Source of the DNA: an uncultured bacterium
GTDB lineage: Bacteria; Pseudomonadota; Alphaproteobacteria; UBA8366; JADFVY01
Length of the DNA stretch: 64,000 bases
Reading direction: 5' to 3'
NCBI GenBank assembly: GCA_965603635.1
Contig: CBFDDT010000003.1
Span: forward strand, 6,978-70,977
Shown: positions 10,949 through 26,484 of the stretch, in pieces
Layout of the letters: each line of letters starts with the position of its first letter
How positions within the stretch are numbered: position 1 is the stretch's first letter
Translations under genes and position numbers: made by a program
The notes under the pieces: generated by a model
What the model saw: the letters and a program-made list of their open reading frames with translations, nothing else
Databases searched by the model: none
What the model was told of the DNA's origin: nothing

Positions 10949-11024
10949 GCCCGGGTAGCTCAGTTGGTAGAGCAGGGGATTGAAAATCCCCGTGTCGGCA
11001 GTTCGAATCTGTCCCCGGGCACCA
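10949..11024 (+). tRNA. tRNA-Phe: tRNA-Phe (anticodon GAA)
   Basis: A 76-nt cloverleaf folded by hand. The acceptor stem is GCCCGGG/CCCGGGC, the anticodon loop is TTGAAAA, the T-loop is TTCGAAT, and the CCA end is encoded. Confidence 0.95.
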
Positions 11025-11283
11025 TTTTTCTTCCCCATGCCTCTGTCTTCCGTTGCCGCCAAATATCAGCGGCATCGGCGCAAACCGAAAACGCGGTTTG
11101 CTTGCGCGTGATGTAGCAATACGATAAATCCGCTCTATCTATGACGCAATCGACTGGGCCCGGCGAAATAGCGGGTGGCGATTTTGGCCGCCGACCCGCC
11201 GGATAATTCGACCGCCTTCCTTGCGTGCCTTGGAACAGATCGCCCCGATCCGAACGGTTTTGTAATCTACGCTGGGCTTTTAT

Positions 11284-12768
11284 ATGCATTCACTCATTGT
11301 TTACCGCGACCAATGGTTCGGCAACATCCGCGGCGATGTCCTGGCCGGACTCGTTGTTGCCCTAGCCCTCATTCCCGAGGCCATCGCCTTTTCCATCATT
11401 GCCGGGGTCGATCCCAAGGTCGGACTCTACGCGTCGTTTTCGATCGCGGTGATCGTCGGAATCACGGGTGGTCGGCCTGGCATGATTTCAGCCGCGACCG
11501 CGGCGACCGCGGTGCTGATGGTAACGCTGGTCCGCGAATACGGGCTTCAATATCTTCTGGCGGCAACGGTCCTCGCCGGGCTGTTGCAGATCGCCGCGGG
11601 GCTTCTGCGGCTCGGTTATGTCATGCGTTTCGTATCGCGGTCGGTGTTGACCGGTTTCGTCAACGCGCTGGCGATCCTGATTTTCATGGCCCAGCTACCC
11701 GAACTGATCGGCGTTCCATGGCTGACCTACGTCATGGTCGCGGCCGGGCTTGGTATCATCTATCTGTTCCCGATGGTGACCAAATCCATTCCGTCGCCGC
11801 TGGTCTGCATCGTCGCCCTGACGGCGATCACTCTCTACTTCGGCTTCGATTTGCGCACCGTGGGGGACATGGGCGAATTGCCGTCGACTTTGCCGGTCTT
11901 CCTGATCCCCGATATCCCCCCGACCCTCGAGACCCTGCTGATCATCCTGCCCTATTCGGCGGCCGTCGCGGCGGTGGGGTTGCTCGAATCCCTGTTGACC
12001 GCGACGATCGTCGAAGACCTCACCGACACGCCCACCAACCTCAGCCAGGAATGCATCGGCCAGGGTCTCGCCAACACGGCGACGGGCTTTATCGGCGGCA
12101 TGGCCGGCTGCGCGATGATCGGCCAGTCGATGATCAATGTTAAATCAGGTGGCCGCGGCCGGCTTTCCACCGTCAGCGCCGGCGTATTTCTGTTGTTCAT
12201 GATCGTCGTGCTTGGCGACCAGGTGAAACAGATCCCGATGGCGGCCCTGGTCGCCATCATGATCATGGTGTCGATCGGCACCTTTAGCTGGTCGTCGATC
12301 AAGAACCTGCGCACCCATCCGCGCAGTTCCTCGCTGGTCATGATCGCGACCGTCATCACCGTCGTTGCGACCCATAATCTTGCGATCGGCGTTCTCGTCG
12401 GCGTGCTGCTGTCCGGCATTTTCTTCGCCTGGAAAATTGCGCAAATTTTCCGGGTTACATCGACCCTGTCGGCGGACGGCAGGTCGCGAATCTACATTGT
12501 GGAGGGGCAGGTTTTCTTCGCCTCGGCGGTAAATTTCACCGCCGCCTTCGACTTCAAGGAGGCGCTTGAGAAGGTCACCATCGACGTAAGCCGGGCCCAT
12601 ATCTGGGATATTTCCAGCGTGGCCGCGCTCGATATGATCGTTCTCAAATTCCGCCGCGAGGGGGCCGAGGTAGAGATCGTCGGCCTGAACGAGGCCAGCG
12701 AGACAATCGTGGATCAGCTTGCGATCCACGACAAGCCCGGGGCGCTCGAACGCCTCATGGGGCATTAA
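11284..12768 (+). CDS. SulP family inorganic anion transporter with a C-terminal STAS domain
   Basis: A 494-aa polytopic protein with typical SulP N-terminal ([20 protein letters not shown]) and STAS C-terminal features. Confidence 0.9.
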
Positions 12769-12779
12769 GGGAGAACGCA

Positions 12780-13634
12780 ATGTCTAAAATATGTGCATTG
12801 GTGGATGGCTCCGTCTATTCCGAAAGCGTCAGCGACCATGCGGCCTGGATCGCGCAAAGAGCGGGATATTCGGTTGAACTGCTGCATGTCCTCGGCCGGC
12901 GCGAGACCTCGGGCGCGCCGTCGAACCTCAGCGGCGCCATAACGCTGGGTGCCCGCACGGCGCTTCTGGAAGAGCTGAGCGCGCTGGACGAACAGCGGGG
13001 GAAACTCGCTCAGAAATACGGAAGGGCGATCCTCGACGACGCCAAGGCCCGCATCGAGGCGGCCGGCGTGACCGACGTCACCGCGGTGCTGAGGATCGGC
13101 GACATCGTCGAAACCGTCGCCGAATTCGAGGCCGACGCGAAAATGGTGGTGGTCGGCAAGCGCGGCGAGGCGGCCGATTTCGCGAAACTGCATCTCGGCT
13201 CCAACCTGGAACGCATCGTGCGCTCCAGCCAGAAACCGGTTTTCGTCGCCTCGCGCGGCTTCCGGCCGATCGAACGTGTCCTCATCGCCCATGACGGCAG
13301 CGCCAGCAGCATGAAGGCGGTCGACCATGTCGCGCGCGGCAAGCTGTTCGCCGGTTTGCAAGTCCGCCTGCTGACTGTCGGCGCCGACAGCCCGGAAAAC
13401 CGCAAGCGGCTGGACGACGCAAAGGCCACGCTGAAGGCGGGCGGCCACGAGGCCGAGGCCAGCATTATGCAGGGCCAGCCCGAGGCGGCAATCGCCCAGG
13501 CCGTCGAATCGGAAGGCGTCGACCTACTGGTAATGGGCGCCTACGGCCACTCCCGCGTCCGCAGCCTGATCATCGGCTCGACCACGACGGGCATGGTCAG
13601 GTCATGCAAAATACCGATCGCGCTCTGCCGTTGA
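12780..13634 (+). CDS. Universal stress protein, tandem Usp domains
   Basis: Two Usp domains, each ending in G-x2-G-x9-G-S/T (VVGKRGEAADF..., VMGAYGHSRVRSLIIGSTT). Confidence 0.9.
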   Translation: MSKICALVDGSVYSESVSDHAAWIAQRAGYSVELLHVLGRRETSGAPSNLSGAITLGARTALLEELSALDEQRGKLAQKYGRAILDDAKARIEAAGVTDVTAVLRIGDIVETVAEFEADAKMVVVGKRGEAADFAKLHLGSNLERIVRSSQKPVFVASRGFRPIERVLIAHDGSASSMKAVDHVARGKLFAGLQVRLLTVGADSPENRKRLDDAKATLKAGGHEAEASIMQGQPEAAIAQAVESEGVDLLVMGAYGHSRVRSLIIGSTTTGMVRSCKIPIALCR

Positions 13635-13721
13635 GACCTGTCTCATGGGGCAATGGGCACGGACAAAAGTGGAGGTGAGGCCGGGGCAATGCTCCCGGCC
13701 CCAGGAATAGCCTGCCGAAAT

Positions 13722-14096
13722 TCAGACGTGGATAATTTGATCTTTTAACGAATAGGCGATCGCCAATACGTCCTTGCGGGTATGCTCATCGATCTTGTGC
13801 TTGTCGAGCGTGCTCAGGATGTCATCGACCGCAGCCATGTATTCCTGCGCGCTGACATTCATACCGCGATGCGCCTCGGGCATTTCGCGGCCGCTATACT
13901 GCTCCGGCCCTCCGGCGCCCGCGCCAAAGAAATCGCACAGATGTTGTTTGATGGTGGCAAGACGCTCCGGCTCGTTGCGGTAAGGCAAGAAGCGGACCTT
14001 GATCAGCGGATTATTCATGTGCGCTTCGACGACGTCGTCCACCAACGTTTTGATACCTTTTTCGCCCCCGAGACGTTCGTACAGACTTTCACTCAT
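13722..14096 (-). CDS. Truncated hemoglobin (group I-like globin)
   Basis: MSESLYERLGGEKGIKTLVDDV... is a trHb-type N-terminus. The start is ATG 14096, preceded by AAGGAG. Confidence 0.8.
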   Translation of the reverse strand: MSESLYERLGGEKGIKTLVDDVVEAHMNNPLIKVRFLPYRNEPERLATIKQHLCDFFGAGAGGPEQYSGREMPEAHRGMNVSAQEYMAAVDDILSTLDKHKIDEHTRKDVLAIAYSLKDQIIHV

Positions 14097-14210
14097 ATTA
14101 TTCTCCTTACTGTTGCCAATTCCATGCTGGAAAGGTCGCGCCAATCAGATTGCGACCGGATTTTGATATACGAATCAAGAGTATATTGTTGACTGCGTTT
14201 TGGGATGTCT

Positions 14211-14227
14211 AGTACAGGATCTGTACT
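14211..14227. promoter_or_regulatory. 7-3-7 perfect palindrome AGTACAG-GAT-CTGTACT in the divergent trHb/hxlR promoter region
   Basis: The inverted repeat was seen directly. It lies about 100 bp upstream of the hxlR-family gene and about 115 bp upstream of the globin gene. Confidence 0.4.
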
Positions 14228-14328
14228 GTCCGCGATTAAATCGTGGGGCAGAAGCTCGAAAGAAAAACATCGTTTGAGCGGTGGGCGTTGGGTTCGCCTG
14301 CAATCTGGCATTTTTTGAAGGAGATGGC

Positions 14329-15045
14329 ATGAAGGGGTATGGTCAATACTGTCCGCTGGCACAGGCCAGCCAGATATTGTGCGAGCGCTGGACACTGCTG
14401 GTCGTGCGAGAATTGATCGCCGGCAGCACAAGATTCAATGAATTGCGACGAGGCGTGCCGCTTATGTCGCCGACGCTGCTATCGCGGCGCCTAAAACAGT
14501 TGGAGACAGCGGGTGTGGTTCGGCGCCAGCGGACCGGCAATGACATTTCCTATGAACTCACCCAGGCCGGTGAAGAACTGCGCCCGGCCATCGAGCTGCT
14601 CGGCGCCTGGGGACACCGCTGGGTGCGCACCCGGTTGGGGCCCGAGGATCTGGATGCCGGGTTGTTGATGTGGGACATGCGGCGCTGCATCGACCCCGCT
14701 CATTTCCCGGAGCATCGCGTGGTCGTGCAACTTCATTACATGGATGCCCCACAGGGGGCGCGGGATTGGTGGCTGGTTTCCGAGAGCCGCGATGTCGACC
14801 TGTGCCTCGCGGACCCGGGTTACGAAGTGGATCTGCTGATCCGCAGCCCGTTGGCCACGATGACGGCGGTCTGGACCTGCCAGTTGCCTTTCCGGGATGC
14901 CGAGCGCAGTGGCGAAATCGAAGTGGTGGGGGACGTTGGGCTGGCGCGGAAACTGCCGGACTGGCTGTGCGCCAGCCCTCTCTCGCGTCTCGGTGAGCTT
15001 TACGAACCGCCGGAAGTGGGTTGGGCCGAGATTAGTCGGGCGTAG
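14329..15045 (+). CDS. HxlR family winged-helix regulator with a C-terminal extension domain
   Basis: YGQYCPLAQASQILCERWTLLVVRELIAGSTRFNELRRGVPLMSPTLLSRRLKQLE. The start is ATG 14329, preceded by GAAGGAG. Confidence 0.85.
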   Translation: MKGYGQYCPLAQASQILCERWTLLVVRELIAGSTRFNELRRGVPLMSPTLLSRRLKQLETAGVVRRQRTGNDISYELTQAGEELRPAIELLGAWGHRWVRTRLGPEDLDAGLLMWDMRRCIDPAHFPEHRVVVQLHYMDAPQGARDWWLVSESRDVDLCLADPGYEVDLLIRSPLATMTAVWTCQLPFRDAERSGEIEVVGDVGLARKLPDWLCASPLSRLGELYEPPEVGWAEISRA

Positions 15046-15287
15046 AGGAACTCCGCGAGCGGCCGGACGACGCCAAGGCCACGCTGAAGGCGGGCGGCCA
15101 CGAGGCCGAGGCCAGCATTATGCAAGGTCAGTCCGAGACGATCGTCGCGCAGACGGTCGAATCGGAAGGCATCGACCTGCTGGTAAAGGGCGCCTACGGC
15201 CACTCCCGCGTCCGCAGCCTGATCATCGGCTCGACCACGACGGGGATGGTCCGGTCATGCAAGATACCGATCGCTCTTTGTCGTTGA
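15036..15287 (+). pseudogene. Remnant of a usp gene (C-terminal about 80 codons only)
   Basis: 15047-15287 matches 13394-13634 (the 3' end of the intact usp) at 216 of 241 positions by hand alignment, with no indels. The frame is preserved (…DDAKATLKAGGHEAEASIMQGQSETIVAQTVESEGIDLLVKGAYGHSRVRSLIIGSTTTGMVRSCKIPIALCR*), but there is no N-terminal domain or credible start. Confidence 0.75.
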
Positions 15288-15382
15288 GGTAATACCCGGG
15301 TTAACCTGCGTCCCGCGCACCCGAACGGAAAATCGGCTATAGCTTGGTGGGTTATCTGATTACAGCCACGGGAGGCGCAACA

Positions 15383-16384
15383 ATGACTGACGGCGGCATG
15401 TCGCCATACGGGTTCACGGCGGCGGCAGATGAGCCGATTGCCTACCTGCGACGTATTCGGGAGTATTATGAGGCGCTGGGTTATGGCGCGCCCTATGAGT
15501 GGGCGCATTACGATGACGCGCCCTTCCAGCCATTGGGGAAACCGCTGGCGGAATGCCGGGTGGCCATCGTCACCACCGCCGCCCCCTACCAGCCCGGCAA
15601 GGGCGACCAGGGGCCGGGCGCGCCCTACAATGCGGAACCCAAATTCTATAAGGTTTACTCGGGCGATACGGATGCGGAGCACGATCTGCGCATTTCGCAC
15701 ATCGCCTACGACCGCGCCCACACCACGGCGGAAGACCACGGCGCCTATTTTCCCCTGCCGGAACTACGGCGAGCGGCGGCGCGCGGGCGCATTGGGGCCG
15801 TTGCGCCGCGTTTCCACGGCATCCCCACCAACCGCAGCCATCGCGTGACCATCGGGACCGACTGCCCGGAGGTCGTTGCGCGGGCGAAGGAAGACAGCGT
15901 GGACGCGGTGCTGCTGCTGCCCAACTGCCCGGTCTGCCACCAGACGGTCAGCCTGGCGGCGCGGATGCTGGAGGAGAACGGCATCGCCACCGTCGTCATG
16001 GGCTGCGCCAGGGATATCGTGGAATATGTGGGCGTGCCGCGCCTGCTGTTTTCCGACTTCCCCCTGGGCAATGCGGCCGGGCGGCCAGGCGACCCGGAGT
16101 CCCAGGCGCTGACGCTGGAGTTGGCTCTGCGGCTGCTGGAAAGCGCACCCGGCCCGCGCACCACAATGCAGTCGCCGCTGAAATGGAGCGACGATGCGGA
16201 CTGGAAGCTGGACTATTCAAACGCCGCGCGGATGACGCCAGAGGAAATCGCCAAACGGCGTGCCGAGTTCGACCGGGTGAAGGCCACGGCAAAAACCCTG
16301 CGCGAGGATGCAGGGGTTACGCGGGACAGGCGCGCCGAGGCGCCGGCGGATTTCCGCCCGGCGCGTGGCGGCGAGACGGCGTAG
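15383..16384 (+). CDS. Glycine/sarcosine/betaine/D-proline reductase component B-like family protein (non-selenoprotein homolog)
   Basis: The family was recognised from blocks such as RVAIVTTAAPY..., LLLPNCPVCHQT..., GIATVVMGCARD. There is no in-frame TGA. The start is ATG 15383, after GGGAGG. Confidence 0.65.
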   Translation: MTDGGMSPYGFTAAADEPIAYLRRIREYYEALGYGAPYEWAHYDDAPFQPLGKPLAECRVAIVTTAAPYQPGKGDQGPGAPYNAEPKFYKVYSGDTDAEHDLRISHIAYDRAHTTAEDHGAYFPLPELRRAAARGRIGAVAPRFHGIPTNRSHRVTIGTDCPEVVARAKEDSVDAVLLLPNCPVCHQTVSLAARMLEENGIATVVMGCARDIVEYVGVPRLLFSDFPLGNAAGRPGDPESQALTLELALRLLESAPGPRTTMQSPLKWSDDADWKLDYSNAARMTPEEIAKRRAEFDRVKATAKTLREDAGVTRDRRAEAPADFRPARGGETA

Positions 16385-16411
16385 GCGGCAGGTCTGCCGA
16401 TAGCCTAAAGT

Positions 16412-16453
16412 TTGATCTCCATCAAAGCGTTACGACGCGATTCTTGTTAGAAT
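16412..16453 (+). promoter_or_regulatory. Class II FNR/FixK-type promoter: perfect TTGATCTCCATCAA box plus a TAGAAT -10 element
   Basis: The box at 16412-16425 matches TTGAT-N4-ATCAA at 10 of 10 positions. TAGAAT at 16448-16453 starts 22 nt after the box end, which centres the box near -41.5. The downstream ATG is at 16530. Confidence 0.7.
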
Positions 16454-16529
16454 TTTATCGTTGATGCGAGCTAACGGCGCCGACGCGTCTGCGATTGCCC
16501 GGCATGCGGAGAAGGAGGTCGGCACAGCA

Positions 16530-17537
16530 ATGCGAAACATGAAATGGACAGCGTTGCCGTTGGTGCTCGCCCTGCTCTGCTTTACCGGCACCGGCCCAGC
16601 CTGGGCGAAGACGGAACCGGACCCGGCGGTCGCCGTGCCGCGGGTACAGAATCCAAGGCGCATCGCCGAAGGGCCGCACGGACTGGTGCTGGTCACCGAC
16701 CGCCGCCTCGGCGCCGTCGTCGCGGTCGACAGGGACAGTCTGGAGCCGATCTGGAGCACCGCGCTGCCGCGGGAGGGCGCACCCTTCGGGCTTGCAGCCA
16801 TGAAGCAGCGGGTCTTCGTCGGCAATACCAGCACAAAGAACGTCGAGGTTTACAGGATGCGCGGGCCCGGCGAGCCTTACACGGCACTCCGTTTCGCCTA
16901 CAACCTCGGTAACGTCCCCGAGGGCGCGACCGGCCCCTTCGAAAATCCGATCGGCATTGCCGTGGACAAGAACGAGAATCTGGTATTCGTTCTCGACGGC
17001 GCGACGAAGCGCATCGACGTGTACAAATCGAGAGGTTCGATTCAGCATTCTTTCGAGCCGCGGGACAGCGAAGGCGTGTTGCTAAGCCCGGTATCGCTAG
17101 CAGTGGACGAACTGCGCCGGGAAATTCTGGTCGGCGATTACGGCAATCCGCGACCGGAGCCCGACTGCAGTTTCTGCACATACACCGCCACCGCACCGGC
17201 GCGCATCCTGATCTACGATTATGGCGGCGAGCTGCTGTTTGAGATCAGGGGCGACGGCACCACCCATTGGTCGACGCGGTTCGCCCGAGTGCAGGGGATG
17301 GCGGCGAGCGGCGACGGGCGGATCTTCGCGGCCGACCCCCTGGGCGGCCGGATTCTCGTCTTCGACCGGTACAGCGGTGCCTTGCTGCAGGAACTGGGCA
17401 CGCAAGGACCGGACGAAGGACAGCTTATGCTGCCGCTGGATGTCTGGCTCGATAGCGAGACCGGCGATCTGTTCGTCTCCAACAACCGGGGCGCCCGCCG
17501 CGTGGAAGTGCTGCGGAACGTCGGGGGGCAGCAATGA
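16530..17537 (+). CDS. Secreted NHL-repeat / six-bladed beta-propeller protein
   Basis: The signal peptide is MRNMKWTALPLVLALLCFTGTGPAWA. Repeated blade motifs are present (PIGIAVD, PVSLAVD, GRILVFD, LFVSNN). There is an AAGGAGG RBS. Confidence 0.8.
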   Translation: MRNMKWTALPLVLALLCFTGTGPAWAKTEPDPAVAVPRVQNPRRIAEGPHGLVLVTDRRLGAVVAVDRDSLEPIWSTALPREGAPFGLAAMKQRVFVGNTSTKNVEVYRMRGPGEPYTALRFAYNLGNVPEGATGPFENPIGIAVDKNENLVFVLDGATKRIDVYKSRGSIQHSFEPRDSEGVLLSPVSLAVDELRREILVGDYGNPRPEPDCSFCTYTATAPARILIYDYGGELLFEIRGDGTTHWSTRFARVQGMAASGDGRIFAADPLGGRILVFDRYSGALLQELGTQGPDEGQLMLPLDVWLDSETGDLFVSNNRGARRVEVLRNVGGQQ

Positions 17538-18343
17538 GAATCTTCGTCAGGTTTTTCGGTGTTGCGTTGCTGGTGTTCGGCTGGCTCGTCCTGGCGCCGG
17601 TTCCCGCGGCGCATGCCGCGATGGAGTGTATCGAATGTCACGCCGACCCGAACGGCGGGGGATTCCATGGCGGATTTCGCTCGCTGACGGGCCTGACCAG
17701 GGCCGAGGTCGATGTCGTCTGCCTGTCCTGCCATGACGGTAGCTATACCAACCCCGCCGGCATCACGGCGCCCGAGGCCGCAGTCCATGAGCAGGTCTAC
17801 AGCGGATCGGGCAAGGCCCCCGAATACGGGACGTTCAGCGCCGGCTGCCTCGATTGTCACAACACCCATGGCCAACTGGCCGGCGACGGCAGCCTGATCG
17901 AAAACCTGCAACTGCTGGGCGCGCTGGTCCGCGAAGCGAGTTCCACCGACGGCGTCGCGCGAATCCGCAAGCCGATCATCGACCCCGGCCCCGACGGCAC
18001 GCTCGGCACCAGCGACGATTTCCATGCCGGCTGGGAATGCGACAGCGGTATCAATGACGATCCCGCCTGCGTCACCGCCGACGACGGCTTCGGCGGCACC
18101 CATGTCCGCGCGCCGGCGTTCTACGGTAATATCTATGAAGGGGGCACCTGGTCCGGCAATGGCGGGGTAAATCCGTGGGCGAACGACACGCTTCCCTACA
18201 ACGGCTCCTGTAATTCCTGCCATACCCGCACCAACCACCACCGCCGGGACAACAGCGGCGGCGACCACACCCACAACATCTCCAAGGCGGGCTGCGTCGC
18301 CTGCCACTCGCACGTGTCCGGCTGGCTGAACAAGGGCGGCTGA
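17534..18343 (+). CDS. Secreted pentaheme c-type cytochrome
   Basis: It has a signal peptide and five CXXCH motifs (CIECH, CLSCH, CLDCH, CNSCH, CVACH). It is translationally coupled to the upstream gene by an ATGA overlap. Confidence 0.85.
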   Translation: MRIFVRFFGVALLVFGWLVLAPVPAAHAAMECIECHADPNGGGFHGGFRSLTGLTRAEVDVVCLSCHDGSYTNPAGITAPEAAVHEQVYSGSGKAPEYGTFSAGCLDCHNTHGQLAGDGSLIENLQLLGALVREASSTDGVARIRKPIIDPGPDGTLGTSDDFHAGWECDSGINDDPACVTADDGFGGTHVRAPAFYGNIYEGGTWSGNGGVNPWANDTLPYNGSCNSCHTRTNHHRRDNSGGDHTHNISKAGCVACHSHVSGWLNKGG

Positions 18344-22621: not shown

Positions 22622-24511
22622 TTACTCCTCCACCTCCACGACCTTGGCCGGACGGCAATCGACGGCCTGGACGGGCAGGCGGACGGTGAAGCGGCTACCC
22701 TCGCCGGGTTTGCTGTCGACCGAAATGGCGCCGCCCATCATCTCGGAGTAGTGGCGGCATATGGCGAGCCCCAGGCCGGTGCCGCCATATTTCGAATCGC
22801 GGCCTGTTTCGGTCCGCTCGAAGGCCACGAACACGCTTTCCAGGCTGTCGCGCGCGATGCCGATGCCGCTGTCGGCAACGTAAAAGCGAATCCATTCCTT
22901 GCCGCCGGTGTGGGCATCGTCATGGAAGCGCGACATACCAAAGTGGATTTCGCCCTCGTCGGTGAATTTCGCGGCATTTGCCAGCAGGTTGAACAGAATC
23001 TGCTTCAACTTGGTGGCGTCCGCGCGCATGCGCCCCGGTTTGGTCGGGATGTCCAGGATCAGCTGGTTGCCATTGGCCTCCACAAGTGGGCGGACCGTCG
23101 CGGCGATCTCGCCTATCAGCACCGTCAGGTCGATTTCCTCCAAATGGAACTCAGTGCGCCCGGCCTCGATCCGCGACAAATCCAGTACTTCATTGATCAA
23201 CTGCAGCAGATGCCGGCCCGCGATATTAATGCGCTCCAGATCGGGTGCAAGATCGGATTGCCCGCGTTCCTCGACATCTTCCTTCAAAATTTCGCTGTAG
23301 CCGATAACCGCGTTCAGCGGGGTTCGCAATTCGTGGCTCATATTGGCGAGAAACTGCGATTTCGCCGCATTGGCCTCTTCGGCCTGAAACTTCGCGGCGA
23401 GCAATTCCTGTTCCACCTCGTAACGTTCTGTAATGTCCAGATTTGTGCCTGTTACGCGAATCGCCCTGCCCTCGGCGTCGCTGGCGATGTCCGCCTGTTC
23501 GAAGATCACCTTTTCGCTGCCGTCGGGCAGGATAATCCGGTAATCGCAGCTGTAGGGTTTGCATTGTGCGACGGCATCCCTGATCACCGCGTCGACGCGC
23601 TCGCGGTCCTCGGCGTGAACGATATTCAAGGTCGTGTCGTAGTCATAGGCCGTGGCGTTCATGTCCCGTCCGAACAGGCGGTTGTTTTCGTCGGACGAAA
23701 TAATCCTGTCATTGACGATGTCCCACTCCCAGCTACCAAGGCGCGCGATGCGCTGGGCGTTGGCCAGCGCCTTTTCCCGGTCGCGCAACATTTCTTCCAC
23801 CCGCTCGCGATCTGCGATTTCATTGCGCAAATTCTCGTTCAGGCTTTCCGCGCGCTCTTTCGCCTCAAGCGCCTTCTCGGTCTCTTCGATCAGGTTCGCC
23901 ACGAGTCCACGATTTTCGCCGGTCAGGCGTACGGCTTCGAGAACGACCCTTTCCTGCCGCTTTCCGGTCATCAACAGGAATGCCAGCAACACCGTGCCCA
24001 TTACCGCCATGGACCAGCCGATCTCACCGCCTTGCCAAGCGAAATAGAGGACTGCCGGCCCCAGAACCGGGATGACGAACAACAGGTAAGTCATGAAAAC
24101 GCGGGCCAGCGACGGCAGCCCACCCGCGGCCATCCCGCCCAACACGAAGGCCGTGAACACCTTGTGAAGCGGCGGCGCCTCGGACATCACGACCAGGCAA
24201 CCGACGCCCCAGCCGATGCCCGTTAATGTAGTGAGTACAGCCAGGCGCAGCAGCCACGCCCGTGCTTCGACTTCATCATAGCTACCGGCACGGCGGTGCC
24301 AGGCATACAGGGCAATGCGCGACATCATTACGCTGGCGATAAAGGCAAACCATCCTAGCAATATCGGGGATGGCAGTTCGCCGCGCATGACGAAGGACAG
24401 GACCGCGGCGTTTAACAGATTTACCGCAACCGTGGCCGGCGCGTCGGAATAGATCAACCGGACTCTGCCGGCGAGATAGGGTTCCCTGTCGTGTATGTCG
24501 GCGGAAGCCAT
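22622..24511 (-). CDS. Membrane sensor histidine kinase (multi-TM N-terminus, coiled coil, PAS, HisKA, HATPase_c)
   Basis: The H-box is [21 protein letters not shown], and the N/G boxes are LLANAAKFT and [11 protein letters not shown]. Confidence 0.9.
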
Positions 24512-24540: not shown

Positions 24541-26484
24541 TCAATTCGTTGCCCCGGCAATCGCCGGAGCGAGGGACGCGCTGGCTTTAGCCGGCAAGCG
24601 AACCGTAAAGACGCTGCCCCGGCCGAGCTCGCTCTCGGCCGATATCGCGCCGCCCATCATCTCACAGTAATGCCGGCTTATGGCCAGACCCAGGCCGGTG
24701 CCCCCATATTTTCGCGTAGTGGAGGGGTCCAGTTGGTCGAAGGCCCGGAAGGCGGCCTCGATCCGGTTCGCCGCCATGCCGATGCCGCTGTCGGTTACGG
24801 TGAATAGGATCCAGCCATCATGGCCCTCCGCCTCTGGCTCCTCCAGGCGATGCACCTTGACGGTTATCCGTCCCTCTTCGGTGAATTTCGCGGCGTTCGA
24901 TAACAGATTATACAGGATCTGACGGACCTTGGTCGCGTCGGCGGCCATTTCGCCCAAGTCCGGGTCGCAATCGACGGTCAACTCGTTGCCCTTGGCCGCG
25001 GCAAGTGGGCGAACCGTCGAGACCACATCGCCGACCAATTCAGAGACTCTGAACGATTCAATATACAGTTCCATCCGTCCGGCTTCGATTTTCGACAGGT
25101 CCAGCACCTCATTGACCAGCGCCAGCAGATGCCGCCCCGCCGTGTTGATTCGGTCCAGATCGACCGAGCTTTCCTCCTGGCCCGCCTCCACCGCATCTTC
25201 CTTCAGGATTTCGCTGTAGCCAATAATGGCGTTCAGCGGGGTCCGGAATTCGTGGCTCATATTAGCCAGGAACCGTGACTTGGCGCGGCTTCCCTCCTCG
25301 GCCTGAGATTTCGCCGCCTCCAGTTCCCGCAATACCCGGTGCTGTTCGGTAATGTCATGGGTTGTCCCGGTCATGCTCGCGGGACGGCCACTATCGTCGA
25401 ACATCGTCTCACCACGTTCATGCAGGACTCGCGCCGTGCCGTCAGCCAGAAAAGCGCGATGTACCACGCTATAGATCGAGCCATCTTCGAGTGAAGCGTT
25501 GACCGCTTTGGTAACGGCGTCCCGGTCATCCGGGTGCACCATTCCCATGAACTGATCGAACGTGATGGATTCAGTGGCCCGGTCGATAGCGAAGATACTA
25601 TAAGCCTCATCCGATCCACGAATTTCGTTCGTTACCAGGTTCCATGTCCAGCTTCCAAGCCCGGCTATACGCTGTGCATTCGCAAGGCTTGCCTCTCGCT
25701 CTCGCAACTCACCACCGACCTTTTCGCGTTCAGCCATTTCGTGCCGCAGCTCAGCGTTCAACTGCTCGGCCCGGGCTTTCTCAGCCGTCAGATGTTCGAT
25801 CAGCCCCTGGTTTTCCATTGATAACCCGAGCGATTGTTCCAGTGAGTCGCTTTGTTTTCGTCCGGCAAGCAGCAAAAAAGTCAGGAACAGAACCGACATG
25901 GCGGCCATGCCGTACCCGGATTCTCCTCCCACCCTTGCGAAATGGACGGCGACAGGGGTTACCGACGGAATCACGAAGGCCAGATATGCCGGATAATAAC
26001 GCGTCAGGGTAATTACCGCGCCCGCGGCCGACCCACCGAGCACACCGACGGTGATTATCTGATACGGTGGCCCCGCCTCCGGCAGCATGAAAATGCCCGC
26101 AAGACCCCAAGCCACGCCGGTCCACAGGGCTCCGAGCGAATAGTACCGCGCCCAGTTCCCCATCGCGCCATCCGTTGGCGCGGCCGCCCTGAACCTGCTT
26201 ACCAGCCAAACCCGCCAGAGGATGCCAGCCGCCATGAAGGCCGACCACCCAGCCAGGATACCGGCATCCACCATGTTGCGAAAAACTATTGCCAGGATCA
26301 CGGTATTTATGACGTTTACTGTCGTGGTCTGCCCAATGCCCGAGTACAGCAGCCGCACACGCGCCGCATATATCCGCTGCTCCAGTCCACCGGACAGGAC
26401 CGTGGTTGGCATGGGGGCGACGAAGGAACCGCCGGTATCCAATTCGTTCTTGATCTGGCTTGTCATAAATTCGGTGCGACTCAC
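24541..26484 (-). CDS. Membrane sensor histidine kinase, tandem paralog of the downstream kinase
   Basis: It has the same architecture. The H-box is [21 protein letters not shown], with [11 protein letters not shown]. Confidence 0.9.
   Translation of the reverse strand: MSRTEFMTSQIKNELDTGGSFVAPMPTTVLSGGLEQRIYAARVRLLYSGIGQTTTVNVINTVILAIVFRNMVDAGILAGWSAFMAAGILWRVWLVSRFRAAAPTDGAMGNWARYYSLGALWTGVAWGLAGIFMLPEAGPPYQIITVGVLGGSAAGAVITLTRYYPAYLAFVIPSVTPVAVHFARVGGESGYGMAAMSVLFLTFLLLAGRKQSDSLEQSLGLSMENQGLIEHLTAEKARAEQLNAELRHEMAEREKVGGELREREASLANAQRIAGLGSWTWNLVTNEIRGSDEAYSIFAIDRATESITFDQFMGMVHPDDRDAVTKAVNASLEDGSIYSVVHRAFLADGTARVLHERGETMFDDSGRPASMTGTTHDITEQHRVLRELEAAKSQAEEGSRAKSRFLANMSHEFRTPLNAIIGYSEILKEDAVEAGQEESSVDLDRINTAGRHLLALVNEVLDLSKIEAGRMELYIESFRVSELVGDVVSTVRPLAAAKGNELTVDCDPDLGEMAADATKVRQILYNLLSNAAKFTEEGRITVKVHRLEEPEAEGHDGWILFTVTDSGIGMAANRIEAAFRAFDQLDPSTTRKYGGTGLGLAISRHYCEMMGGAISAESELGRGSVFTVRLPAKASASLAPAIAGATN

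Follow-up and report, generated by a model that had tools for sequence, protein, structure and literature searches.

How did a truncated haemoglobin gene and an HxlR-type regulator gene come to lie between an intact universal stress protein gene (usp) and a second copy of the 3′ end of that same gene? The arrangement is found in a 64,000-nucleotide stretch of a contig from an uncultured alphaproteobacterium, the whole of which is referred to here as the window (features are listed in Table 1). From the anatomy of the repeats and the comparison with related loci, we conclude that one insertion-duplication event, by Campbell-type single crossover or one-sided homology-assisted integration, probably produced the arrangement and that it has since aged.

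A repeat finder reported a direct repeat in two copies (13394-13635 and 15047-15288) with a spacing of 1653 bp and 90% identity. An ungapped count over 13394-13634 (copy A) and 15047-15287 (copy B) gave 216 identities in 241 positions and zero indels, the same figures as those given by the first-pass annotation, which had described the end of usp as recurring downstream. At p = 0.30, the binomial tail for at least 216 matches in 241 is ~1e-83. The 25 differences fall on codon positions 1, 2 and 3 in the proportion 9/4/12 and alter 10 of 80 residues. Copy B can be translated in frame without stops and keeps the motif G-AY-G-HSRVRSLII-G-S; it covers only positions 71-141 of the 141 in the Pfam Usp profile (E 3.9e-10), and tblastn with Usp found no N-terminal part of a second usp in the whole window, in agreement with the earlier description of an in-frame copy that retains the motif and lacks its N-terminal part.

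Ungapped comparison showed that the homology ends abruptly on both sides, its end falling exactly 1 nt beyond the usp stop codon. On the left, the insert joins usp at about 13635/13636. On the right, the hxlR stop codon occupies 15043-15045 and homology to usp resumes at 15047, 1 nt after it, which bears out the observation that the second copy starts right after hxlR. Both junctions are thus no more than 1-2 nt from a stop codon (usp TGA+G, hxlR TAG+A). The right joint reads TAG/TAA-A-GGAAAACC, whereas beyond hxlR two loci with the same gene pair elsewhere, L081 and L167, go on with GGTGCGAC. The HxlR C-terminus aligns with that of L081 up to the stop; this codon is native and common to both, so we rejected the idea that the remnant supplied hxlR of the window with an out-of-frame stop. 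The repeat finder detected no inverted repeats at the insert ends (13636/15046), an Rfam scan of 12500-16500 gave no match at E values up to 1, and the insert (13636-15046) encodes only the haemoglobin and HxlR, with no integrase or transposase. Its first 47 nt are unlike the sequence after copy B and unlike that after usp in the related loci L001, L172 and L170; they are kept in the closest relatives, L175 and L171, and homology to L081 begins behind them, at 13683.

Table 1 Features of the usp locus in the window (positions are those of the whole window).
Feature	Position	Strand	Basis or remark
tRNA-Phe gene	10949..11024	+	ARAGORN; upstream of SulP-Usp pair
SulP-family anion transporter with STAS domain, conserved usp partner	11284..12768	+	Pfam Sulfate_transp E 1e-54, STAS
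Tandem-domain universal stress protein gene usp, intact, 284 aa	12780..13634	+	Pfam Usp PF00582 E 1.3e-33, two stretches
Repeat copy A	13394..13634	+	Last 241 nt of living usp, codons 206-284 plus stop
Spacer, 47 nt	13636..13682		Between usp stop and start of module homology
G+C-rich hairpin between convergent usp and trHb	13679..13701		Centroid stem in both strands; partly conserved in L081
Group 1 truncated haemoglobin (trHb), 124 aa	13722..14096	-	Pfam Bac_globin E 6e-11, above cut-off
Divergent intergenic region of module	14097..14328		A+T-richer: G+C 0.46-0.54 versus 0.62-0.68 around
HxlR-family winged-helix regulator, 238 aa, ~130-aa C-terminal extension	14329..15045	+	Pfam HxlR E 1.3e-21, residues 17-100
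Repeat copy B	15047..15287	+	Displaced or duplicated usp 3′ end; pseudogene fragment without 5′ part
Conserved motif ACGGAAAATCGGCTATAG...	15326..15355	+	Upstream of next gene; no Rfam match
PrdB/GrdB-like gene	15383..16384	+	NCBIfam TIGR04483 E 1.4e-23, below cut-off; Pfam GRDB E 0.002

The inserted genes form a unit that occurs elsewhere. The trHb product matched PDB entry 7tt9 ("Group 1 truncated hemoglobin") and related entries over residues 4-122 (E 2e-29), and its sequence assigns it to the group 1 truncated haemoglobins. The regulator has 6049 homologues, the best of which are 230-268 aa long and some of which carry an SCP2 domain. The same divergent pair, trHb on the minus strand (124 aa) and HxlR on the plus strand (~238 aa), occurs with other neighbours and without usp in L081, L082-86, L167, L168 and L169, and nucleotide homology to L081 begins at 13683 and breaks off exactly with the hxlR stop codon (15045). 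Judged by these loci, the pair is a portable divergent module with at least five other genomic contexts that lack usp, and the cassette proposed by the first-pass annotation, including its arrival at usp, is supported. The intergenic region, which falls inside a stretch of 82% nucleotide homology to L081, presumably contains both promoters and the operator of the regulator. The hairpin at 13679-13701 is likely to act as the transcription stop for trHb; statistically it does not stand out (z 0.13 and -1.0), nor did the terminator scan flag it. A scan for promoters and terminators scored no higher than expected from shuffled sequence and revealed no promoter for copy B. In every case, the group 1 trHb gene had as its partner an HxlR-type regulator with a C-terminal extension, and none of the papers in the searched literature mentions both HxlR and truncated hemoglobin.

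The site that received the module is strongly conserved. The neighbour of usp is SulP in 78 of the 80 loci from genomes and in 74 of the 80 from metagenomes, and the amino-acid identity of SulP across Alphaproteobacteria is 75-93%. Residues 1-284 of the window Usp align with orthologues in most of ~160 loci, and dN/dS for the whole gene is 0.09 between the window and L175, indicating purifying selection; a metagenome scan with Usp gave a best match of 74% identity. One related protein, P0127 (195 aa), stops no more than 3 codons from the boundary of the repeat. In L171, the 3′ end of tRNA-Phe directly precedes the remains of SulP.

Relatives preserve the uninterrupted site. L172-174 (88-89% nucleotide identity) and L001 have a single usp followed by the sequence that, in the window, follows copy B, and these loci as well as L170 (83%) contain neither globin, hxlR nor remnant. 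In L170, which lacks the PrdB-like gene, the single usp leads directly into the region of the NHL gene (from window position 16412), and the upstream synteny hisGD...RNase G-SulP-usp is kept. L172-174 carry a different, A+T-rich insert that starts a few bases from the usp stop. The motif at 15326-15355 stands shortly after the single usp in L001, after the alternative insert in L172 and after copy B in L171, a distribution that identifies it as part of what ancestrally lay downstream of usp. The PrdB-like gene, collinear in L172-174 and L171, is by the same kind of comparison the original downstream neighbour of usp in the clade of the window. None of ~165 SulP-Usp loci, among them L001, L170 and L172-175, has a second usp at the position seen here; the intact second usp that the first-pass annotation had proposed looking for in related genomes is thus missing from them, and so, in L172-174, L001 and L170, is the globin/hxlR pair.

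Other relatives share the insertion itself. L171 (93% nucleotide identity) has both junctions at the same nucleotides as the window, and L175 (96%) has the left junction as in the window. Since L171 and L175 are independent metagenome contigs, the shared junctions rule out an assembly error and indicate one ancestral event. Between the window and L171, synonymous divergence is 0.07-0.08 in the module, much lower than the 0.32 in the neighbouring PrdB-like gene, so that the locus does not have one simple genealogy. The loci can be arranged as a series of stages: L001 and L170 show the site still empty, L172-174 have another insert in the same place, the window and L175 have the insertion together with the duplicated tail, and in L171 the host operon around the insertion has later decayed.

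Copy B originated within this clade and is in decay. Its identity to own-clade usp genes is 216 and 224 of 241, compared with 205, 193 and 184 to outgroup usps. The orthologous remnant in L171 lacks most of the changes specific to copy B, which therefore arose after the event. M252, invariant in 154 of 154 orthologues, has become M252K in copy B of the window and M252I in L171, whose remnant also carries Y255H at a residue invariant in 154 orthologues; M252K, L211P and I238V of copy B occur in 0 of 154 orthologues. Copy B and the L171 remnant differ by 16 non-synonymous and 11 synonymous substitutions (dN/dS 0.44), as against 6 and 36 in living usp (dN/dS 0.05; Fisher p = 1.5e-4 for the difference in counts), whereas copy B did not differ from neutral expectation (p = 0.12). 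By these substitution patterns, copy B is a decaying, non-functional usp fragment. Its frame-preserving substitutions had earlier been taken to favour an old paralog, but they are no evidence of constraint: with 25 substitutions and no indels over 80 codons, an open frame is expected even without constraint, and it is invariant residues that were replaced.

The history of the two copies is partly overwritten. At four sites (13592, 13599, 13610 and 13625), the A copies differ from the B copies in both the window and L171, which means either that ~2% of positions already differed between the copies when the event took place or that the copies had time to diverge before the two lineages separated. 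Tracts of mosaic sequence lie at 13439-13472 and 13485-13490, with conversion in L171 over 13542-13625. Three derived sites in L171 are common to both of its repeat copies, which suggests that the copies exchange sequence. Recombination has blurred the history of the repeats, the record of which is limited to 241 nt, and site patterns polarised with five outgroups, and then with L172, displayed no clear switch point that would identify A or B as the incoming copy. Nucleotide identity of usp to L001 is 88% in codons 1-205 and 81% in codons 206-284; both A and B are more distant from L001 in the latter because this is the faster-evolving part of the gene, so the drop does not help to identify the incoming copy.

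We propose that in the common ancestor of the window, L175 and L171, a narrow clade of uncultured marine Alphaproteobacteria, 1.41 kb of foreign DNA became joined to the usp 3′ end. The integrated piece would have been a self-contained module of a group 1 trHb and a divergently transcribed HxlR-type regulator, and the same event would have duplicated the last 241 bp of usp. Upstream copy A would have kept usp intact, leaving downstream copy B promoterless, 5′-truncated and still attached to the DNA that originally lay downstream. Most likely, a circularised DNA with the module and a usp 3′ fragment would have recombined with usp by a single crossover; a closely related alternative would be homology-anchored integration with one illegitimate joint or a template switch. 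Afterwards, copy B would have decayed near-neutrally with occasional gene conversion from copy A, with the module genes (dN/dS against L171 of 0.21 for trHb and 0.11 for HxlR) and usp staying under purifying selection. The repeats would allow loss of the module by homologous recombination, and nothing pointed to an excision system that is regulated or dedicated to the task. When a circle with a partial gene end was integrated by one crossover in E. coli, the insert came to be flanked by gene-end duplications (lacZ) of 109-950 bp, and such duplications were far commoner than true one-sided illegitimate events, which gave deletions (PMC3240628). At the locus studied here, the insert likewise lies between direct repeats that copy a segment of the target gene, one completing the gene and the other truncated, and the outer flanks are collinear with the uninterrupted site of L001 and L172-174. 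The loci compared contained neither a donor arrangement (usp fragment beside module) nor a circular form, and the Campbell step is therefore something we infer from the anatomy alone. That both junctions abut stop codons is not predicted by a random recombination joint and counts against this explanation.

The first-pass annotation had preferred an old tandem usp paralog, the 5′ two-thirds of which were replaced by the globin/hxlR pair. The 10% divergence of the copies and the open reading frame would fit such a history, as would two distant loci (L145, L150) with two full usp genes ~4 kb apart, but close relatives have no second usp, and the single usp of the empty-site relatives joins the flank of copy B. 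Moreover, copy B nests within the usp diversity of its own clade, its divergence is mostly private to the window and non-synonymous at conserved sites, and the homology ends exactly one nucleotide beyond the stop codon. This reading is already largely refuted, and we regard it as highly improbable; the structure is a target duplication after all, only no longer the fresh one that had been thought less likely. It is scarcely credible that copy B is an expressed, functional mini-Usp or that the repeat is an assembly artefact. An open 55-codon ATG ORF (15120-15287) and the retained nucleotide-binding motif speak for a mini-Usp, yet copy B spans no more than the C-terminal half of a single Usp domain, nothing resembling a promoter was found, and the high dN/dS of the remnant, together with the different replacements of invariant residues in two lineages, argues against a conserved small protein. 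As for an artefact, the same junctions recur in independent assemblies of other samples that differ by 4-7%.

Two further readings also invoke an incoming module. A linear donor with usp followed by the module could have come from a close relative, pairing homologously in SulP/usp at one end and, at the other, forming an illegitimate joint or switching template 241 bp upstream of the usp end, so that the 3′ end of the recipient became copy B. The anatomy is equally compatible with this course of events, SulP/usp offers a highly conserved anchor, usp is visibly mosaic among close relatives, and the same model has been proposed for orphaned 3′ end strings in T6SS and Rhs loci (PMC5361080). We nevertheless consider it unlikely: no genome was found in which usp directly precedes the module without a remnant, duplications in one experimental comparison came from single crossovers of a circle, one-sided events being rarer and yielding deletions (PMC3240628), and microhomology at the joint cannot be read without the donor sequence. 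Alternatively, the usp 3′ end could act as a dedicated attachment site for the module, which would be a small integrative cassette, non-autonomous and moved by a recombinase encoded elsewhere, in which case the duplicated usp end would be equivalent to the attL/attR of islands in gene 3′ ends. The junctions abut stop codons, the different A+T-rich insert of L172-174 lies within a few bases of the usp stop, and in the unrelated locus L089 an intact usp is followed by two successive usp 3′ remnants that separate different cargo, accompanied by a low-G+C island and by the stop region of usp in tandem copies of 25 nt. Against this, the insert has no integrase or transposase and no inverted repeats at its ends, the flanks are housekeeping genes collinear with relatives, the remnants differ in length (241, 131 and ~90 nt) and thus define no fixed crossover point, and remnants occur in only 2 of ~165 loci. 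A dedicated site is in our view very improbable.

In L089, the intact usp is followed by a desaturase gene and a usp tail of 131 nt, then by the stop region of usp in five copies of 25 nt, genes for a cupin and an acyl-CoA dehydrogenase, a second usp tail of ~90 nt and, last, the low-G+C island. Here, an out-of-frame stop supplied by the remnant is possible (TAAGAG versus GTAGAG). It is conceivable, though rather doubtful, that the SulP-linked usp 3′ end, in which the DNA of the nucleotide-binding motif is nearly invariant across Alphaproteobacteria, is a recurrent capture point at which small cassettes are added successively, each pushing a usp tail downstream. If so, L089 (an array with three tails) and the window (with a single tail) would represent an integrase-less, homology-driven analogue of the integron or of Rhs/T6SS orphan arrays, serving ordinary metabolic and stress genes.

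Under the preferred insertion-duplication, the locus would be a clean natural example of a small accessory module entering a core locus without an integrase or transposase and without damage to the target gene. The duplicated tail would then keep time like a built-in clock, and ordinary homologous recombination could use it to remove the module or to spread it later. In annotations, the open frame of 80 codons should be given as a pseudogene fragment of usp and not as a small Usp. The scar itself is a well-documented but ordinary recombination scar, and the current understanding of recombination is unchanged by it.

Among known systems, the target-site duplication of transposons is similar in that a direct duplication flanks an insertion. 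The window differs in having no terminal inverted repeats, no transposase, only globin and hxlR genes in the insert, and a duplication of 241 bp, far beyond transposase stagger lengths. Islands in the 3′ ends of tRNA or protein genes share the direct repeat of the gene 3′ end around an insert that leaves the target intact, but here the insert is 1.4 kb, its repeat length is unlike those of L089 (241 nt compared with 131 and ~90 nt), and independent insertions share no crossover core that could act as an att core. No recombinase gene was found in the insert or among the neighbours tested (the PrdB-like, NHL-repeat, cytochrome c7-like and FAD-linked oxidase genes and others). Homology-facilitated illegitimate recombination, and with it the orphaned 3′ ends described for effector loci of the Rhs, CDI and T6SS types (PMC5361080), is alike in that incoming DNA on a conserved anchor displaces the resident 3′ end, which persists downstream, and repeated events can give arrays, as in L089. 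In those loci, the displaced ends encode variable toxin tips, come with immunity genes and are reusable, whereas the end displaced in the window repeats the active one, lacks a partner gene and decays. Compared with the Campbell-type insertion-duplications obtained experimentally (PMC3240628), the event at usp is natural and old, with 10% repeat divergence, junctions at two stop codons and a circle that we infer. The resemblance extends to the insert between direct repeats of a few-hundred-bp target-gene segment, to the one copy that completes the gene and the other that is truncated, and to outer flanks that are collinear with the empty site.

The repeat bracketing the globin and hxlR genes is the sole long direct repeat that the repeat finder returned within 11000-18000, with a spacing of 1653 nt and 90% identity. 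The first-pass annotation had reported a repeat of the 241-bp usp end at this spacing, and ungapped comparison of copy A (the end of the intact usp) with copy B confirmed it at 216/241 identities; since the binomial tail for this match is ~1e-83, chance is ruled out. Outside the repeat limits, similarity drops off at once on either side. The Pfam assignments (SulP, Usp, trHb, HxlR) agree with the earlier gene identities, and comparison with solved structures identified the globin as a group-1 truncated haemoglobin (7tt9, E 2e-29). Copy B, separated from the hxlR stop codon by one base, had been described as lacking an N-terminal part: indeed, it covers (15048-15287) only positions 71-141 of the Pfam Usp profile, and a second N-terminal usp piece is absent throughout the 64-kb window. 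Elsewhere in the window, two adjoining histidine-kinase genes apparently form a tandem duplicate pair.

Features of the window and of compared loci
Feature	Locus	Coordinates	Strand	Source or detail
SulP/STAS transporter	window	11284-12768		Pfam
Usp, intact, 284 aa, two-domain	window	12780-13634		Pfam
Direct repeat, copy A	window	13394-13635		repeat finder
Between usp stop and module homology	window	13636-13682		47 nt
Bacterial-type globin (trHb)	window	13722-14096	minus	Pfam
HxlR-family regulator	window	14329-15045	plus	Pfam
Direct repeat, copy B	window	15047-15288		repeat finder
Motif, ~29 nt	window	15326-15355		ACGGAAAATCGGCTATAGCTTGGTGGGT; upstream of PrdB-like gene
PrdB-like gene	window	15383-16384	plus	
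Histidine-kinase genes	window	22622-24511, 24541-26484	minus	both PAS_3-HisKA-HATPase_c
Whole locus	L089	5992-10750		metagenome contig Ga0233427_10000135
usp end and first usp tail (131 nt)	L089	6726-6856, 8222-8352		85% identity
Five 25-nt tandem units	L089	8338-8463		CCTGTATCGCTAGGCGCGTTGCCGT
Second usp tail	L089	10660-10745		~90 nt
733-nt insert	L172	2930-3663		also L173, L174

A 124-aa globin and a ~238-aa HxlR protein, divergently transcribed, also occur as a pair in the Dongiaceae MAG L081 (82% nt identity to window 13683-15045) and in four more unrelated contexts (L082-86, L167, L168 and L169), never adjacent to usp. The globin/HxlR cargo is therefore a cassette, as initially suggested. 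Homology with L081 stops exactly at the hxlR stop, and the continuation downstream of hxlR (GGTGCGAC...) common to L081 and L167 is absent from the window. In every context examined (window, L081, L082-86, L167-169, L171) the gene for the ~238-aa HxlR protein, which has a C-terminal extension of ~130 aa, stands back to back with one for a group-1 truncated haemoglobin; an SCP2 domain (PF02036) is present in some homologues of the regulator. A full-text literature search combining HxlR with 'truncated hemoglobin' matched no paper, and the partnership may be undescribed. Group-1 truncated haemoglobins are known for NO or oxygen-radical handling. The module probably supplies this function, controlled by an HxlR-type regulator of its own that senses redox state or electrophiles; that it sits beside a stress-protein gene is probably incidental.

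SulP-Usp is a very widespread two-gene unit. Among loci retrieved with Usp, it occurs in 78 of 80 from species-representative genomes and in 74 of 80 from metagenomes; no globin, hxlR or second usp tail immediately follows usp in any of them except L089. The decisive close relatives came from 90%-identity Usp and HxlR clusters. L170 (83% nt) is fully syntenic with the window from hisG to usp, which is followed directly by NHL and cytochrome genes. In L001, whose Usp is 87% identical in amino acids, ~80 nt past usp lead to the motif ACGGAAAATCGGCTATAG, located in the window 38 nt downstream of copy B. L172-174 (88-89% nt) carry a single usp, and an A+T-rich insert unlike the window's that begins a few bases from the usp stop, beyond which the motif and the PrdB-like gene recur; for the minus-strand 155-aa ORF of this insert, no Pfam hit is recorded, nor is there any to NCBIfam. 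L175 (96% nt) contains SulP, usp and trHb with a left junction identical to the window's, its contig stopping within trHb, while L171 (93% nt, another sample) comprises usp tail, trHb, hxlR (stop TAA, then A-GGAAAACC), remnant and PrdB-like gene, with both junctions at the same nucleotides as the window. From these comparisons, the arrangement is genuine, goes back by inheritance to a single event and is a derived state of a narrow clade. What lies 3' of copy B is the DNA that ancestrally flanked the 3' end of usp, and the spot just 3' of usp varies between close relatives. The motif that precedes the PrdB-like gene is retained in L001, L171 and L172 within otherwise diverged spacers; it matches nothing in Rfam and may be a promoter or operator.

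In L171 (1-300 and 2978-3323), a tRNA-Phe 3' end precedes a SulP piece of just 77 nt and usp from the 13494 equivalent on, and the NHL and cytochrome c7-like genes are absent too; either the host operon was deleted around a kept module or the scaffold is misjoined. P0127, a 195-aa cluster member called as Usp on a 4.6-kb JGI contig, ends ...LLTVGA at most three codons from the repeat boundary 13394. The assembly of that other sample may have broken here at the repeat, in which case the duplication would seem to be present there too.

Of 241 positions, window copy B shares 216 with copy A, 214 with L171 copy B, 205 with L172, 193 with L170 and 184 with L001; L171 copy B shares 224 with window copy A. 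Clade-specific states common to copies A and B, such as the C-terminal ALCR, show that copy B derives from the usp residing at the locus or from an almost identical allele. The old paralog preferred in the first-pass annotation is rejected in favour of an aged insertion-duplication. Most A/B differences in the window are private to its copy B and absent from the L171 remnant (including AA to CT, K209E, L211P, P234S, I238V and M252K). The preserved frame, previously taken as a sign of an old paralog, says nothing for function, because there are no indels and a stop seldom arises from 25 substitutions in 80 codons. Across 154 orthologues, M252 and Y255 are invariant and P211 and V238 never occur; residue 252 is K in window copy B and I in L171 copy B, which also has H255. 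The remnants differ from living usp in dN/dS (Fisher p=1.5e-4) and show no difference from neutrality (binomial p=0.12), which argues against a conserved mini-Usp. Copy B is a pseudogene fragment in decay, today probably serving hxlR at most as a 3' untranslated tail. Neither a promoter nor a terminator signal is conspicuous at the locus.

Nei-Gojobori estimates
Comparison	dN/dS	dS
Two remnants (16 non-synonymous : 11 synonymous)	0.44	0.215
usp codons 1-205, window vs L175	0.05	0.272
hxlR, window vs L171	0.11	0.084
trHb, window vs L171	0.21	0.066
PrdB-like gene, window vs L171	0.20	0.318

The repeats appear to have exchanged sequence. L171 copies A and B share three derived sites (13542, 13563 and 13580) and are near-identical from 13542 through the stop, the signature of gene conversion between them. 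Sites 13592, 13599, 13610 and 13625 split A copies (window, L175) from B copies (window, L171), so the copies either were ~2% different at formation or had a short time to diverge ahead of the lineage split. In the tract 13439-13472, window copy A groups with the B copies and L001 against L175 and L172: ASIMQGQ is encoded in the window, both remnants and L001, and ADILPGQ in L175 (the window's closest relative), L172 and L170. The usp gene is mosaic among close relatives, the tract indicating allelic recombination or conversion from remnant to living usp. When the window is compared with L171, synonymous divergence comes out ~4x lower in the module (13694-14993; 0.07-0.08) than in the PrdB-like gene (15383-16323; 0.32). 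Module and neighbours do not share a single genealogy, which, for a 241-nt repeat and two or three genomes, suggests that one or the other was swapped by homologous recombination after the original event.

In L089, an independent locus, an intact usp is followed by a fatty-acid desaturase gene whose stop abuts a 131-nt usp tail, then by cupin and acyl-CoA dehydrogenase genes, a second, further decayed tail, and a low-G+C stretch that includes a DUF4145 gene. Directly 3' of the first remnant lie tandem units, each composed of the final usp codons, the stop and 11 nt of usp downstream sequence. The locus looks like usp ends displaced in succession. These tails and the alternative insert in L172-174 raise the idea of repeated capture at the usp tail, which we regard as improbable.

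A single insertion of 1653 nt (1412-nt module plus 241-nt usp tail) kept usp whole, and the sequences outside it are still collinear with the empty site. The locus has the anatomy of an insertion-duplication in which a circular molecule bearing a gene-end fragment recombines with the chromosome by a single crossover, and we infer this route as the probable one. One-sided homology-anchored integration, or a template switch back into usp 241 bp upstream, would yield an identical product; this model has been put forward for orphaned 3' ends in T6SS and Rhs arrays (PMC5361080). Support is lacking for an integrase-borne island, with no recombinase within the insert, housekeeping genes all around it and a remnant length unlike that in L089. 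Transposon insertion is excluded because transposase and inverted repeats are lacking and 241 bp are duplicated. Both joints lie 1-2 nt from stop codons, a proximity that none of the crossover, one-sided, transposon and integrase models accounts for. Excision of the module by recombination between the repeats is plausible.

For the single crossover there is a precedent in E. coli, where this outcome outnumbered true homology-facilitated illegitimate recombination and the insert was flanked by lacZ-end duplications of 109-950 bp (PMC3240628). As in the window, the insert there is bracketed by a duplicated gene end, that of lacZ rather than usp. The arrangement is a recombination scar of an already known kind, of which this locus provides a further, well-resolved case.
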